A DNA stretch of 64,000 nt from a plasmid. Within the stretch, counting starts at the first letter, position 1. Every line of letters starts with the position of its first letter. The stretch lies in NCBI RefSeq assembly GCF_057098645.1, contig NZ_JBXSPU010000002.1. One strand, 5' to 3'. Made by a program: the position numbers. Below, one piece after another: positions 1 through 48,000 of this stretch.

Positions 1-3000
1 TAGCTCATAGGACATAGCCAGTGCCGTCAATGCTTCTTCGGCTTCCTGAAGCGATTTAATGGCCGTTTGGCGCATCTCTGTGCGGTGTTCAATCATGGTA
101 ATGTTTGTCCTCGTTGCACAGTTCCTTTTAGATGCAAGCTCAACGCCTGCATTAAAATTCATGCCGTCTTTTTTGGCTTCGGTGGCTCGCTGGGAGGCGA
201 TATGGTCGGTAATCTGCGGGTGCCTTCGATTACAGCCGTATCATTTGTGGTCTGCCGGGAAAGCTTCATCGGATACTCCTTTGCCCGGAGCCGCCGGGGC
301 GGGGGGGTGTTCACACCTTGTGTTTGCTGCAACGGCATTTTTTCAGGCAACCGGGAAAGTAACTTTTTCGACATATTCCTGCTTTATGTACCCGCTTTTC
401 ACACTAAAGTGAAATTTGCCCTCCTTAGCGAGAATTTAAAACGGACGGATCGCGTACTATAACCCCCGGAAAAAAAGTTACTTTTTTTTCGCCTCAGGTT
501 ATTAGGAAATGAATCGAACCTGGTATTGTTGTTTTGTAGCGAACAAACACCCTAAACGAAAACTAAAAGGAAGGCACCATGTCCACTGTCGAAAATGATG
601 TAAAAACCGCTAACAACGATATCAGCCTGCGCACCTACCTGGAGCGTACCGGTAACGGCGCACGCAAAAGCAATGGTCTAGTCATTAACCCGGCAGTGGT
701 CGAAGAGGAAGAGGGGTTTAACACCCGTACTGCTGGCATTGGGGAGAGTTACTACTCATTACCTGACGTGGTAGCCCACCTGAACAGCCTGAAAGAGTCC
801 TACAAGATCGATCCTTTAAGCGTACAAGCTATTGTCGTACAGATTCTGAATGGCCGTCCGGTCCTGCGCCAGGGAGCATGCCGTATCCGTGCCGTCGCGA
901 TGGCAAACATCGAGCTGGCAGATGAAGGGCGTGAATTGATCACGTTAATTCGATGCGAGGAGTTTCGCGGTAGCCGCGCCAGTGCCGAGCAGTTTACGCT
1001 GGACGGTAACTCAAATCTGGCTCTGTCTGTCGTAGCTGAGGCGCTCTCCATCAAACGGATGGTTGAAGACGCGGAAGAACCCAAAACGTTCGCTGAACTG
1101 GCGAAGCGTCGCGGTAAAACCGAACAGCACCTGCGTCAGATGGTTCGCGTCCTGGATCTGCCTGAAGCCCTCCAGGCCATGTTGGTGAAGGGTGAAGTGA
1201 GTATGTATGTCGCGCTGGATGAATACCTTTACAGCGGCGATGAAGCGGTCAACAACATCACCAAAGCCATTGATGTTTATGGTAAGGCGACGGCCAAAAC
1301 CCTGAAATTCGTCAAAGCTGGCAACATTGATGCAGCGATGAAGCCGAAAGCAGCCATCGTGCCGGACGCAAATGCGACCCCCCCGGAAACCACCGTGACT
1401 GAACAAACGTCCGGCGAAGGTACTAACGATGAGACCACCCCACCGCAGCTGGTGGACGGGAGTGCGGGCACTAACCCGGAGCCGACCCCGGAAAGGACCC
1501 CGGCACCGCAGATGAAAGACCCGGTCAAAACGCCAGAGCCTAAAGCTGTGTCGGTCTCCAGCGTACTGAACAAAAAGACCGTGACGACGATTGCGGACAC
1601 GGCAATCCCGCTGTTTTCGCGTATTGCGGAAGAAGCTAAACAACGGGCCGCTAAGAACCTCAGCGACGATACTTACACTCTGGTGCTGACCAATGACGAG
1701 ATGAATGCCATTTGTAAAGCTCACGGCGATCTGACGCAGTACCTGCGTAAACATGCTGAAAAGCAGAACAAGGGCCAGGCATGATTTCCTGACTGACCCC
1801 GCCACCCGGTAGGGTCGGTTACCACCACTGGTCAAGGAGAAACAGGGCAATGAAGAATACCGCAATCAACATCAGCACGAAGAAACCATTGCAGACAGTT
1901 AAGGACCCGGTGACCCGGGTCAGCATTCATTGTACGGCTAAGGATGAGAAGGGCGCAGACGTGGAAGTAAATATTCTCGACCTGGAACAGCACCACACCA
2001 CCAACGAAATCAAATTGACGTTTGGCGGTTCCCCTTCCCAGGCGCTGACAATGCTCAGCAGAGTGATGGTCGTGCTGCAACAGCAGGCGGCCGAAGAACT
2101 GCAACGGAATTCCTGCTCCCGTTTGCAGTGAACACCGAAAGGAGCAATGGCACGACGTTATGGATAGAACATGGATTTATAATTTTAAAGGACTCAGTGC
2201 TGGCACTAATTATGTTAAAGCGATTAATCTCTGCGAGTGAATGTGTAGCTACTAGAATTTGTTGGTCTGGCAAAAAACTCCCTAAAAACGCACCACCTAT
2301 GGAAGCTAGTTAATAAAATCTGCTACCTATTTACATAATTCCACATGCGTCCAATTTTTAAGATTGTCGGTTAATTTAAAAAATTTTCAGTGTAGGTTAT
2401 TAGCCAGCAGCCCGGGTTTTATATAATACCAAAAACATAGGAGGTATTATGAAAACCAATCTGGCTTATGCATCTAATTGTTCTGACTCTCTTTACTCCT
2501 TTATTTATCCTGCACTGCAACAACGCTCTGGAACCGAGAATGAAAGTCTCTATCAGCAGGCTATTTCCGCCTGCCATACTCCGAAATAAAAAATGAAAAT
2601 GGGCGGTTACTACGCTGGCCCCTGGCAGATGCTGTTTAACGCATGGTGTCACAACCGTGTACCCAACATTGCCGTACTGCCGGTATTGGCCCAGCAGTGT
2701 TTCTCCTCTTTGCAATGCGAAGAGCTGATCGCCAACTGGCACTAATCACATTATGCCCTGCTGGTGGATACTGGCAGGACTGGAGCACCTATAAATGTAT
2801 AAATATGACAGGAACCGGCAGACGTTCAACTTGATCAATGCGCTTCAGCCGGTCTATCGCAACAATGGTGGCGGTTTGTTTGAGTTCGACCGCAGGAAGC
2901 AACATGAAACAGCAGATCTGATCTTCGAGGCACTGACTTTCTCCCCAACGCCCGAACTGGAGCTGGCGAAATTTGTCCGTCTCAAATCGGTGCGCCGGAT

Positions 3001-45000: not shown

Positions 45001-48000
45001 TGACGTAAAAGATTTGGCTGCGCAACTTAATGCTGCAACCGGCAGCGACTGGTCGAGGGCATCACTTATTCGCCAGATCAAAGGTTCAGTTAATGAATGT
45101 CGAATAACCCAGGAAGAATATCATTATCTTCGATCGTTGCTCCCCTCACGCCCAGCAGACTATGACCAGAAATTTTTCCGTTTTATTGACTTGTTTGCTG
45201 GGATCGGTGGCCTCCGGAGTGGTTTTGACGCCATTGGCGGGAAATGCGTGTTTACAAGCGAATGGAATCAGTTCTCCCGCCGGACATACAGTGCAAACTG
45301 GTACTGTGACGAGACTGAGCACTATTTCAACTCAGATATCCGGGACATTACACTCAGTAATCTTCCCGATGTTTCGGATGACCAGGCCTATGCTTCTATC
45401 GATGCATCCATCCCAGACCATGATGTTTTGCTCGCAGGTTTCCCATGCCAACCGTTCAGTATTGCCGGTGTCAGCAAAAAGAACTCTTTGGGCCGAAAAC
45501 ACGGCTTTGAATGCGACACCCAGGGGACCCTTTTTTTTGATGTCGCCCGGATCATCCGAGCCAAACAGCCTGCCATTTTCGTTCTTGAGAACGTAAAAAA
45601 TCTGAAGAGCCACGATAAGGGAAATACGTTCCGCATCATCATGAAAGCGCTTGATGAACTTGGCTACGATGTTGCCGACTGCGATGCTCACGGATCAAAG
45701 GACCCCAAAATAATTGACGGTAAGAACTTCAGGCCTCAGCACCGGGAACGTATCGTGTTGGTTGGATTCAGGCGCGATCTGAAGCTCCATGATGGCTTTT
45801 CGTTAAGTGGTGTATCGGCTCTTTATCCTTCACGACGGCCAACCCTTGGGGAGCTGCTGGACGCTGAGGTCGATAGCCGTTACATCCTTTCTCCAAAGCT
45901 CTGGGAGTACCTTTATAACTACGCTAAAAAGCACCAGGCAAAAGGTAATGGATTTGGCTTCGGACTGGTAAATCCACTTGATAAATCAGTTGTTTGCAGA
46001 ACACTCAGCGCACGGTACTATCGTGATGGCTCTGAAATTTTGCTAGACCGTGGATGGGATCACAGCATAGGCGAAAAGGACTTTAATGATCCTGTAAATA
46101 TGGCAAGGCGCCCGCGCCGTTTAACCCCGCGAGAATGTGCCCGCCTTATGGGATTCGAGCAACCGGGAAAAGTTACTTTTCGCATTCCAGTCTCTGATAC
46201 CCAGGCCTATCGCCAGTTCGGCAATTCGGTCATCGTCGACGTATTTGCGGCCGTGGCCAGTTTGCTTCGAAGCCGTATTGAGATCGCCGTTGCGGCTCGT
46301 CTCAAGGGAGAGTTTGAAGCGGCATCATAGTAATTCTTCTGTGTGATTTTGCAGGTTAACGTAATGGTTTATTTCACTAATATTGTAACTTTTACACAGA
46401 AAAAAACCTGGGCAGGGAGAGAAAGGCCTGCTTCAGTCAACTCCTTCATCAGGAGGTAATGATGACGTATTTTGATTCAGCAGAAGACCTCACCATTTCA
46501 AAACAGAGAGCTCTGCAAGAGCTTGCAAAACATGGCGTCGTAGCCAGCGACATAGACGTATTTTTTTCCGAGTTGGGTGAGAGGGAAGAGTACAACGCGC
46601 AAGAAGTATTGATATGGCTAGGCTATTAGTATTTTTAAATTTCAGGAGGTCCCATGGGCCAGAAGTTTGCAGTTTTTATTGCTTACGATGACGAACCAAA
46701 CACGAAACGATACTCGGCTGAATTTCAGACACAGGATGAGTATGTAAAGGGATGGCAGTCGGCCCTGAAGAAAGCACACCACACGTCCGGGCAGAAATCT
46801 GTGATCAGCTGCGGATGTCGGGGAAAAGGCGCAAAGCGTCTCTACGTCCGCTCACTACCAAACAGTGATACGTTCATCCTGATTAAGGCTGCAAATACAG
46901 GCACTGAGCATGATCCATCGTGTGTGTTTTTCGACCTTGATGCCAGGCATACAGGGTTAAAGGGTTATGCCAGCAATGTTGTACGCATCAACAATGAGGG
47001 GACCATGTCAATCCGCCTTGGAATAGGCATGACGGAGAAAGATCCGCCGGAAAAGTCTGAGGTTCCTTCCCTGCCCCAAATCCAGCGACCTGAAGGTGGC
47101 CAGGCTTCAATGACCCTCTCCGGACTTCTGAGTTTGTTGTGGACTGAAGCCGGTCTTAATGTCTGGTATCCGAATATGGCCGGGAAGCGAAATGATTCGC
47201 TGGTTCGATACCGGATGTTGGAAGCCGCAAAGCAGATTAGATCGGGTAGAGCATGTATTGGCGACCATCTTTTTATCGGGGTGGCGGACTCTAAAAGCAA
47301 AGTGGCCAGTGAGCAGGTTCAACTGCTGTCGTCGGCGGAACTGAGCGACAAACGACTGCTGCTGCTATCAGTACTGCCGCGCTATGACGCAGAAAAGCAT
47401 GAGAAGCCGCTGAAGTTTCTACCTATGCGTAACTTCGGCGGTATGCCCCTTACCTTCTTTAACTCAGACGGGCACTGGGATAGCGTGAAGCGGCGATTCC
47501 CTCTGGAATATGCCGCCTGGAAAAATGGGGGCAAAGTTGTTGTTTTTGCTCTTACATCTCCCGTATCGGTGACCAGTAGAGGTATCTCTGCACGAGCTCA
47601 TCAGATAGTGCTTATGCTGGTGAGTGATAACTGGATACCTCTGGACTCCTCCTACGAAGCGATAGTGTCCCGTAAACTTGATGCCGAACACCGGCACTAT
47701 GTTAAGCCTATGCGGTATGACGCCAGTGCGAGCGATGTTTTCCCAGATTTTTATTTACTGGATACACGAAGTGATAAGCCGTTCCCGATGGAAGTTTTCG
47801 GGATGTCGACACCTGCCTATCTTGCGCGAAAGGAACTTAAGAAGGCGTATTACAACCAGGAATATGGGGCCTATGGATGGTGGCACTGGGATGCTACGGA
47901 GAAGACTGAATACCAGGAACTCCCTCATTTCCCGGAAGCTAGACGATAAAATTAACCCGAATCACAACCTTAAAATTGGGCTAAAAATGGCGTACATACT

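Follow-up and report, generated by a model that had tools for sequence, protein, structure and literature searches.

The window analysed here, a stretch of 64,000 nucleotides, comes from an IncHI1 plasmid of the R27 type that carries tet(X4). Near its beginning lies the gene for p401, a ParB-like protein, and short palindromes with the core AAAGTWACTTT are scattered across the rest of the plasmid backbone in the window. The gene, the sites and two probable variants are as follows.

579..1784, + strand: p401, 401 aa, orphan ParB/KorB-family protein (R0104 in R27), candidate binder of the palindrome
354..368, unstranded: site GGAAAGTAACTTTTT, intergenic, 218 bp upstream of the p401 start; conserved in pNDM-CIT
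472..486, unstranded: site AAAAAGTTACTTTTT, 100 bp upstream of the p401 start; 13/13 kept in pNDM-CIT and IncHI2
4888..4902, unstranded: site AGAAAGTAACTTTAC, intergenic, 169 bp upstream of gene 5064-5378
9578..9592, unstranded: site GCAAAGTTACTTTTC, within traD at its 3' end, with the 368-aa transfer gene following ~60 bp downstream; conserved in pNDM-CIT and IncHI2, with the equivalent position occupied in the distant plasmid L020
11308..11322, unstranded: site AAAAAGTTACTTTTA, within the 5' part of traD; 13/13 kept in pNDM-CIT and IncHI2
16044..16058, unstranded: perfect 15-mer, in the divergent mobI/16617-operon intergenic region (presumed oriT region), 192 bp upstream of mobI
16529..16543, unstranded: site CAAAAGTTACTTTTC, 81 bp upstream of gene 16617-17417; 13/13 kept in pNDM-CIT and IncHI2
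16969..16983, unstranded: site AAAAAGTAACTTTGC, within gene 16617-17417; centre A<->T swapped in pNDM-CIT
19607..19621, unstranded: site AAAAAGTTACTTTTA, 5' end of trhH, overlapping the end of a thioredoxin-family gene
25144..25158, unstranded: perfect 15-mer, convergent gap between trhG (TraG_N) and a HAD gene
25226..25240, unstranded: site GAAAAGTTACTTTTT, end of the HAD gene, 82 bp from the site at 25144..25158
25504..25518, unstranded: probable variant GAAAAGTGACTTTAG (centre G), within the HAD gene
27307..27321, unstranded: probable variant CAAAAGTGACTTTCC (centre G), end of gene 26566-27315, ~25 bp upstream of gene 27341
29761..29775, unstranded: site CTAAAGTTACTTTTC, over the DsbA stop codon, before the convergent gap to umuC
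36511..36525, unstranded: site AAAAAGTAACTTTTC, intergenic, between the 1111-aa gene and the following one, which starts ~175 bp downstream
44653..44667, unstranded: site CAAAAGTAACTTTTT, first codons of a thermonuclease gene, in the divergent region with a Dcm methyltransferase gene
46167..46181, unstranded: perfect 15-mer, within the 3' part of the Dcm methyltransferase gene (44903-46330)

A possible promoter, TTTAAA-17-TATAAC, was read by eye just upstream of the site at 472..486.

All 15 AAAGTWACTTT copies listed in the original prediction were recovered, at most 1-3 nt from where it had placed them, while dinucleotide shuffles of the window gave a mean of 0.04 and a maximum of 1. Matches to the 15-mer GAAAAGTWACTTTTC at 0, 1 and 2 mismatches numbered 3, 4 and 7 in the window versus 0, 0.02 and 0.3 in order-3 Markov controls, bearing out the claim that the palindrome occurs beyond chance. 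At three mismatches, the window held six matches versus ~2.8 expected; a three-mismatch match at 52421 is part of a terminator hairpin and was rejected as a motif copy. The earlier description of the core as usually extended to the 15-mer holds only in part. Three copies in the window are perfect and four have one mismatch, but only the 13-mer AAAAGTWACTTTT is solid, because A/T occupies position +/-6 in 74% of sites and G/C occupies position +/-7 in 51%. Two of the three diverged copies proposed earlier, at 25504 and 27307, depart from the core only by a central G and belong to a class above chance (centre-G/S variants: two in the window and four on the whole plasmid versus 0.2 expected), but the third, at 28198, has a mismatch within the core and is indistinguishable from chance. 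Information content is about zero outside positions -7 to +7, and conservation ends at 15 bp. The expectation that the arms are too short for a stable hairpin agrees with the computed free energies of the sites, a negligible -0.3 to -1.8 kcal/mol. No description of the motif was found in the literature searched, which did not extend to the original R27 and R478 sequence papers, and within those bounds the motif is, as had been supposed, undescribed.

A complete plasmid of the IncHI1 lineage has 41 copies, against 0.23 expected by chance; all are in its ~159 kb of backbone, and the 30.9 kb of accessory DNA carries none, against 8 expected (P = 3.5e-4). The original assignment of the motif to the backbone is thus upheld; the accompanying observation that the resistance island (52-64 kb) is free of it was weak on the window alone (P ~0.03) and is strong on the complete plasmid. 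Similar counts were absent from unrelated sequence, with no copy in 124 kb of non-IncHI control DNA. Intergenic DNA holds 22 of the 41 sites, compared with an expectation of 19% (p = 1e-6), and 17 of these 22 stand 50-350 bp upstream of a gene start. The remaining 19 fall in 19 unrelated coding regions, where density is still far above chance. These figures match the earlier description of copies upstream of genes, at gene ends and inside coding sequence.

The palindrome is also the top over-represented one in regions of IncHI1, pNDM-CIT, IncHI2 and Klebsiella IncHI1B/FIB plasmids, so that it is enriched in every IncHI subgroup examined, and it occurs in IncHI-like contigs of Yersinia, Leclercia, Klebsiella and a metagenome. 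Sites are kept at orthologous positions and are better conserved than their flanks: identity is 93% versus 72% between IncHI1 and IncHI2 (p = 1.4e-6) and 97% versus 87% between IncHI1 and pNDM-CIT (p = 1.6e-4). Several of the substitutions within sites are A<->T swaps at the centre. The motif is under purifying selection, with its centre free between A and T. Backbone specificity, selection, the free A/T centre, an extent of no more than 15 bp, the negligible hairpin energy and the placement of the copies all agree with the original reading, in which a dimeric DNA-binding protein of the backbone would occupy the sites in a KorB-like network.

The ParB-like gene at 579-1784, put forward earlier as a source of the binder, is a plausible candidate by both genomic context and predicted fold. 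Copies of the motif precede the p401 orthologue in 8/8 lineages (2, 3, 2, 5, 5, 2, 1 and 1 copies), across which the protein is 36-100% identical. The protein is laid out as a ParB-type N-terminal domain plus helix-turn-helix (HTH; residues ~17-254), a disordered Pro/Thr/Glu-rich linker (256-321) and a C-terminal helical hairpin (332-398), and it matches the profiles Pfam HTH_ParB (3e-5) and TIGR00180. Its AF2 model, of low confidence at residues 1-12, returned CTP-bound ParB, RK2 KorB and Noc as Foldseek matches, and its HTH aligns with the parS-binding HTH of Caulobacter ParB. The canonical GERRxRA box is missing from the p401 N-terminal domain, the equivalent box II reading QGACRIRA, and this domain aligns to ParB by structure only; for both reasons CTP-clamp behaviour of p401 is uncertain. 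We found no adjacent ParA, no (L/F/I)G(K/R)G(L/F/I) ParA-interaction motif in p401 and no KorA-like partner, and the 93-aa gene downstream neither encodes an HTH protein nor is conserved. The R27 deletions Del7 (lacking R0104) and Del1 (lacking R0042, the p385 gene described below) are viable and stable, conjugation and transcription not being among the published readouts. This stability makes an essential partition role of p401 unlikely, unlike that of the essential KorB. Because every element with the motif has the entire IncHI-like backbone, co-occurrence does not distinguish p401 from the other proteins encoded there. In unrelated elements, the distant relatives of p401 (L017, L019 and the IncC orphan) come with no clear palindrome of their own, which precluded a demonstration that protein and site co-vary. 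Nothing speaks for the H-NS homologue as binder.

From sequence and structural modelling, we propose that the palindrome is the recognition site of an orphan ParB/KorB-family protein of the IncHI backbone, most likely p401, with the copies acting as operators or loading sites; we put this reading at somewhat better than even (about 55%). Binding of the motif by p401, transcriptional control by that binding and any CTP dependence are what we infer. One p401 HTH would occupy each half-site AAAAGT, and through the copies in front of its own gene p401 would regulate itself. Of the ~40 remaining copies, some lie 50-350 bp upstream of backbone genes and others at operon junctions, in convergent gaps or within genes; these would serve as operators and/or loading sites from which p401 may repress or organise transcription of transfer, leading-region and replication-adjacent genes. 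KorB on IncP-1 plasmids and the 14 dispersed ParB sites of IncC would be the parallels to such an arrangement.

The binder might instead be a second orphan paralogue, p385 (385 aa; R0042 in R27), alone or together with p401, and we consider this unlikely though worth serious attention. Encoded outside the window in a conserved Dam-p385-DUF4942 cluster, p385 has the N-terminal domain and HTH region in common with p401 (31% identity), and a one-mismatch site precedes its start by 84 bp. In the distant plasmid L020, a p385-like gene has a perfect 13-mer directly against its start codon, and both L020 and another motif-bearing distant contig, L018, were retrieved via p385-like proteins. However, the recognition helix of p385 varies among lineages whose motif does not, whereas in the p401 clade the corresponding pattern, S/T-x-x-H-[LIV]-R, is invariant. 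The exact multi-copy clusters also stand upstream of p401 rather than p385. It is improbable that the sites belong to a non-ParB regulator, either another plasmid HTH protein (for example, of the HtdA/TrhR/TrhY circuit) or a host transcription factor, with p401 merely one of the regulated genes. A 13-bp palindrome would fit many dimeric HTH families, and one copy lies inside trhR, upstream of trhY. Yet the motif is not known to match any E. coli transcription-factor consensus, it is absent from the 124 kb of non-IncHI DNA, and the gene directly downstream of p401 is neither HTH-encoding nor conserved; some 40 sites, half of them intragenic or at gene ends, are also a better fit to ParB-type sites than to classical operators.

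We scarcely credit a non-protein origin, in which the palindrome would be a small repeat (mobile or REP-like), fold into an RNA or DNA hairpin, or arise as a by-product of restriction-modification. The palindrome is short and AT-rich and some copies do sit at gene ends, but the copies have no common sequence beyond 15 bp as a REP or MITE repeat would, the folding energies given above argue against a hairpin, and a mobile repeat is hard to reconcile with copies in 19 unrelated coding regions maintained at orthologous positions. The motif is also longer than restriction-modification targets, and it is enriched, whereas such targets tend to be avoided. We regard it as very improbable that the sites are dispersed parS centromeres of the Par1 ParA/ParB partition system. 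The precedent is the IncC plasmids, MOBH relatives in which 14 dispersed parS sites are bound by the partition ParB (PMC10954446), and one perfect site does lie ~950 bp downstream of IncHI parB. Against this, no site with two or fewer mismatches lies upstream of IncHI parA or at its promoter, Par1 has its own array there of ~22 direct repeats of 52-54 bp, and its ParB is of a different, SopB-like type with 16% identity to p401.

If p401 is indeed the binder, a more far-reaching version of this proposal can be imagined, although it is speculative and we doubt it. Here p401 would be a nucleotide-switched ParB clamp beside the transfer origin, possibly redundant with p385, which loads at ~40 sites and spreads to silence or compact the whole 180-300 kb IncHI backbone. 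It would form a plasmid-wide establishment or "stealth" layer alongside plasmid H-NS/Hha and feed into the temperature-dependent control of conjugation.

In typhoid Salmonella, IncHI plasmids are carriers of multidrug resistance, and among Enterobacterales they disseminate mcr-1, mcr-9, tet(X4) and NDM genes. No function is known for most of their backbone genes, and what is known of their regulation is confined to H-NS/Hha and the TrhR/TrhY-HtdA circuit. The ~40 conserved sites and a named candidate protein offer a testable map of a second plasmid-wide control layer, and the motif, being confined to the IncHI supergroup, could double as a simple marker of IncHI backbone DNA.

The palindrome is most likely part of a ParB/KorB-type site network, a known kind of control system that is new for IncHI in the literature searched. 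The KorB-OB system of IncP-1 (RK2/RP4) likewise uses a 13-bp palindrome with a degenerate centre (TTTAGCSGCTAAA versus AAAAGTWACTTTT in IncHI) in a dozen or more backbone copies that are promoter-proximal, upstream or intragenic, although the OB consensus itself is not matched. The predicted architecture of p401 is KorB-like, with an HTH after the ParB-type N-terminal domain and a flexible linker leading to the C-terminal dimerisation module, and KorB structures are among its top Foldseek fold matches. In contrast to IncP-1, IncHI has ~40 sites on a 160-kb backbone. KorB is a partition ParB encoded with ParA (IncC) and KorA, whereas p401 is an orphan, the Par1 and Par2 systems being separate and elsewhere on the plasmid; its C-terminal domain is a predicted helical hairpin and its gene can be deleted from R27.

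In IncA/IncC plasmids, MOBH/MPF_F relatives, the conserved backbone likewise carries dispersed copies of a palindrome, most of them between genes and some in ORFs, and binding of the 14 dispersed parAB053 ParB sites was shown by EMSA (PMC10954446). The IncHI palindrome has the same pattern: backbone-scattered, mostly intergenic and absent from accessory DNA. The same palindrome count recovers the IncC site from IncC DNA, but its core, TTTCACATGTGAAA, occurs 7 times in 39 kb of IncC and 0 times on the IncHI plasmid. In IncC the partition ParB is the binder and one of its sites overlaps the parA promoter, whereas IncHI parA has no site. The IncC homologue of p401 is a separate orphan "parB-like regulator", and even the IncC sites close to the gene for this orphan are occupied by the partition ParB instead (PMC10954446), which counts against p401 as the binder in IncHI.

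Noc of Bacillus subtilis, whose structures are also among the p401 fold matches, is an orphan ParB paralogue without ParA that has many dispersed palindromes (NBS) distinct from parS, much as we infer for p401 and its sites. Noc differs in being chromosomal, in carrying an amphipathic N-terminal helix that targets it to the membrane, and in acting in nucleoid occlusion and cell division. HerB/YfjB of F plasmids is likewise encoded by a ParB-like gene in a hok-containing region beside transfer genes; it has 652 aa with extra D3-D4 domains and binds the host chromosome, with no sequence motif found (PMC13370423). By contrast, IncHI has a sharp motif restricted to the plasmid itself, which would make p401 a candidate natural example of an orphan plasmid ParB with a sharp recognition motif.

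We consider the palindrome with core AAAGTWACTTT (W, A or T) to be a genuine protein-binding site that is under selection in the IncHI plasmid backbone, with a probability of about 0.9. The first 20 kb of the window matched many IncHI1 (R27-type) tet(X4) plasmids at 100% identity, such as pYPE10-190k-tetX4 (NZ_CP041449.1; hereafter pYPE10), and these were typed as carrying an IncHI1A replicon, a MOBH relaxase and MPF_F mating-pair formation. The window starts in a hok-containing region adjoining the Tra1 transfer genes (mobI, mobH, traD, trhH, trhG) and runs through further backbone genes to a resistance island at about 52-64 kb. 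All 15 copies of the core that the original prediction placed in the window were recovered, against a mean of 0.04 and a maximum of 1 in dinucleotide shuffles. Matches to the 15-bp consensus GAAAAGTWACTTTTC with 0, 1 and 2 mismatches numbered 3, 4 and 7, compared to 0, 0.02 and 0.3 in order-3 Markov controls, while the six matches with three mismatches (about 2.8 expected) were individually inseparable from chance. Two copies at 25504 and 27307 had been described as diverged; they are probable variant sites whose sole difference is a G at the centre, and this G/C-centred class is itself enriched (4 in the whole plasmid, 0.2 expected). In a symmetrised logo of all sites, information was confined to positions -7 to +7 with none in the flanks, in the pattern G (51%) A (74%) AAAGT W ACTTT T C, with A at the centre 21 times and T 20 times.

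A separate inverted repeat was observed downstream of the H-NS-like gene:

Window 51986-52390: H-NS-like gene
Window 52421-52447: perfect hairpin AAAAGCCACT-TTTC-AGTGGCTTTT, directly downstream of that gene and followed by a T-rich run

This hairpin looks like an intrinsic terminator, and the three-mismatch match at 52421, which is part of it, was discarded as a spurious motif copy.

For counting over a complete plasmid, pYPE10 was assembled from four concatenated pieces totaling 190,128 bp. It contained 41 exact cores, compared to 0.23 in shuffles (maximum 2), and these covered the whole backbone, including Tra2, Tra1, the leading-type region, replicon-adjacent regions and unknown genes, at a median spacing of about 4 kb. 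The expectation that the motif belongs to the backbone only was borne out, as the 30.9 kb of accessory DNA in pYPE10 held no copies where 8 were expected (P = 3.5e-4). Sites were intergenic in 22 of 41 cases even though non-coding DNA makes up only 19% of the backbone (binomial p = 1e-6); 17 of these 22 precede a gene start by 50-350 bp, and the others are in convergent gaps or distant from starts. Density within coding regions, at 1 per 6.8 kb, was still far above chance.

The same motif emerged when every 9-14 bp palindrome was counted de novo in segments of 41-50 kb taken from four lineages. AAAGTnACTTT was the top over-represented palindrome in each, with copies numbering 17 for IncHI1, 13 for pNDM-CIT, 14 for IncHI2 and 21 for a Klebsiella IncHI1B/FIB plasmid. 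At 3-8 copies per 21 kb, it also occurred in IncHI-like contigs of Yersinia intermedia and Klebsiella grimontii, of a Leclercia-type plasmid and of several metagenome or short-read assemblies. No copies were found in 124 kb of controls, which combined accessory islands with DNA from an IncC plasmid and from two unrelated elements. Applied to IncC, the procedure returned the published IncC parS core as its top palindrome. Orthologous 13-bp sites were 93% identical between IncHI1 and IncHI2 versus 72% for their 80-bp flanks (Fisher p = 1.4e-6), and 97% versus 87% between IncHI1 and pNDM-CIT (p = 1.6e-4); several of the few site substitutions were A-T swaps at the degenerate centre. Sites internal to traD were kept in all three of these lineages. 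One of the conserved sites, 55-60 bp ahead of the transfer gene that follows traD, occupies the extreme 3' end of traD in IncHI1, pNDM-CIT and IncHI2, and it holds this position in a distant MOBH plasmid (L020) too:

Window 9578-9592: traD 3'-end site
L008:29090-29104: the corresponding site in a comparison record
L006:29849-29863: the corresponding site in a second comparison record
L020:18301-18315: the corresponding site in the distant MOBH plasmid

This shared position suggests a putative internal promoter or control point of the traD operon.

Other explanations of the motif fit the data poorly. The original prediction had dismissed a hairpin, and we agree that the motif is neither hairpin nor terminator, because its folding energy on its own is only -0.3 to -1.8 kcal/mol. 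The flanks share no common sequence, which rules out a REP- or MITE-type repeat. The motif is too long and too enriched for a restriction-modification target, and to our knowledge it corresponds neither to such a target nor to an H-NS site or a Tus/Ter site. A role as the centromere of Par1, the IncHI ParA/ParB partition system, was also rejected, as there were no copies with up to two mismatches upstream of parA and a direct-repeat array is found there instead:

L005:36750-38611 (pYPE10 record 186750-188611, outside the window): upstream of parA, an array of about 22 directly repeated units, each 52-54 bp long, with an approximate consensus of CCCCTTAATCGCCAGACCATGGAGGAAAGCTGGTCGNGTACCGTGGCATTTAACCCC

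This array partly overlaps small annotated hypothetical ORFs and is probably the Par1 centromere or incompatibility determinant. A further array, in the Klebsiella oxytoca IncHI1B/FIB plasmid (NZ_CP064110.1, L007:29326-30310), has nine copies of CCCGCATGCGGG within GTATTCCCCCCGCATGCGGGGGTTATCGG repeats, spaced by about 61 bp or multiples, and adjoins Cas6-like and helicase genes; it is a plasmid-borne CRISPR array unrelated to the motif.

IncHI plasmids encode three ParB-family proteins, namely the SopB-like Par1 partition ParB and two orphans of 401 and 385 residues, here p401 and p385:

Window 579-1784 (+): p401
L005:14225-16566 (pYPE10 record 164225-166566): Dam-p385-DUF4942 cluster
L018:8899-12836: Dam-p385-DUF4942 cluster in a distant IncHI-like contig

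The balance tips slightly towards p401 binding the motif, which would then act as an operator or loading-site network. Two copies lie upstream of the p401 start, at -218 and -100, the latter directly downstream of a possible promoter (TTTAAA-17-TATAAC) that was spotted by eye and had no match in a consensus scan; such scans of the p401 upstream and mobI intergenic regions were uninformative. All p401 orthologues examined (36-100% protein identity) carried copies in the roughly 600 bp preceding their start: two in IncHI1, three in pNDM-CIT, two in IncHI2, five in each of two Klebsiella plasmids, two in Yersinia, one in the Leclercia-type plasmid (plus a one-mismatch copy) and one in a metagenome contig. 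Co-variation of protein and site was looked for in two ways. A scan of genome contigs with p401 peptide patterns found one Klebsiella locus only. Among contigs with distant relatives found by profile search, the same motif was present in L016, L018 and L020, and a clear palindrome was absent from L017 and L019.

Matches of p401 to Pfam HTH_ParB and TIGR00180 were weak, and its HTH aligns with the one by which Caulobacter ParB binds parS. In an AlphaFold2 model (mean pLDDT 73, above 85 over residues 20-240), a ParB-type N-terminal domain and HTH domain are followed by a disordered linker rich in Pro, Thr and Glu and by a helical hairpin at the C terminus; the model's top Foldseek matches in the PDB were CTP/CDP-bound ParB, RK2 KorB (8QA8, 8QA9) and Noc. 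No ParA gene is adjacent, and the canonical ParA-interaction motif is absent from the sequence. Nucleotide binding is uncertain because the box II equivalent reads QGACRIRA in place of GERRxRA, and the CTP-binding boxes could not be reliably mapped because the HTH was the only part aligned when PDB sequences were searched with a profile. A 93-aa gene downstream of p401 was rejected as a KorA-like partner; it lacks an HTH, is unlike the HTH_43 protein that occupies this position in L017, and does not occur in the Klebsiella and Yersinia lineages.

It is unlikely that p385, alone or jointly with p401, is the binder. p385 is a ParB paralogue in a conserved cluster, common to IncHI1 and a distant contig, with a Dam-type methyltransferase and the "restriction methylase"-like DUF4942 protein, but only a one-mismatch site lies upstream of its start and its recognition helix differs between lineages that share an unchanged motif. 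In the p401 clade this helix retains S/T-x-x-H-[LIV]-R, and the comparison favours p401 as the candidate binder over p385. In a search with p401, some IncHI-size plasmids (e.g., NZ_CP091543.1, Salmonella, 185.5 kb) gave matches that covered only about 55% of p401 at about 30-35% identity, at two places per record, not three. They may be natural variants without the p401 gene and, if so, would be useful for asking whether sites decay in its absence.

Previous deletion genetics bear on both orphans. In a systematic study of R27, Del7 removed R0099-R0110, including R0104, whose annotation gives a similarity to 60 residues of Caulobacter ParB and which directly follows a flmA/hok homologue, and Del1 removed R0037-R0043, including R0042 next to dam (PMC4853401). 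R0104 is taken to be p401 because of its annotation and position, and R0042 is taken to be p385. Since both deletions were obtained and only Del16 destabilized the plasmid (PMC4853401), neither orphan ParB is individually essential for maintenance in E. coli, which makes partition unlikely as their primary role and speaks against an essential, KorB-like repression of lethal genes. The sole one of the 19 deletions never obtained, Del18 (R27 168,601-175,050, R0199-R0205; PMC4853401), is outside the window and contains neither ParB paralogue; this region may hold an essential or toxic-when-unbalanced function.

The motif had been thought undescribed, and its sequence strings matched only unrelated papers in the literature searched, which did not include the original R27 and R478 sequence papers; in searches of IncHI with ParB, KorB, palindromes or oriT, no dispersed palindrome or ParB-type regulon was described in IncHI. 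Its interest is moderate, as IncHI plasmids are clinically important and the predicted regulon is sharply testable. The proposed likeness to KorB-OB of IncP-1 holds for the arrangement: a 13-bp palindrome whose centre is degenerate, copies located at promoters, upstream of genes and inside them, and a ParB-family protein as (here candidate) binder. IncC plasmids have a similar scattered arrangement of 14 ParB-bound parS sites (PMC10954446), and the closest IncC relative of p401 is an orphan "parB-like regulator" rather than the parAB053 ParB. The IncHI network belongs to neither family, because its motif sequence differs, its candidate binder is an orphan that has no partner ParA, the gene is dispensable and the parA promoter has no site. 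For HerB/YfjB, the leading-region ParB-like protein of the F plasmid, a motif was not found (PMC13370423), whereas IncHI has one. Noc and its NBS sites offer a further likeness, since Noc too is an orphan ParB paralogue with numerous dedicated sites, as predicted here for p401.
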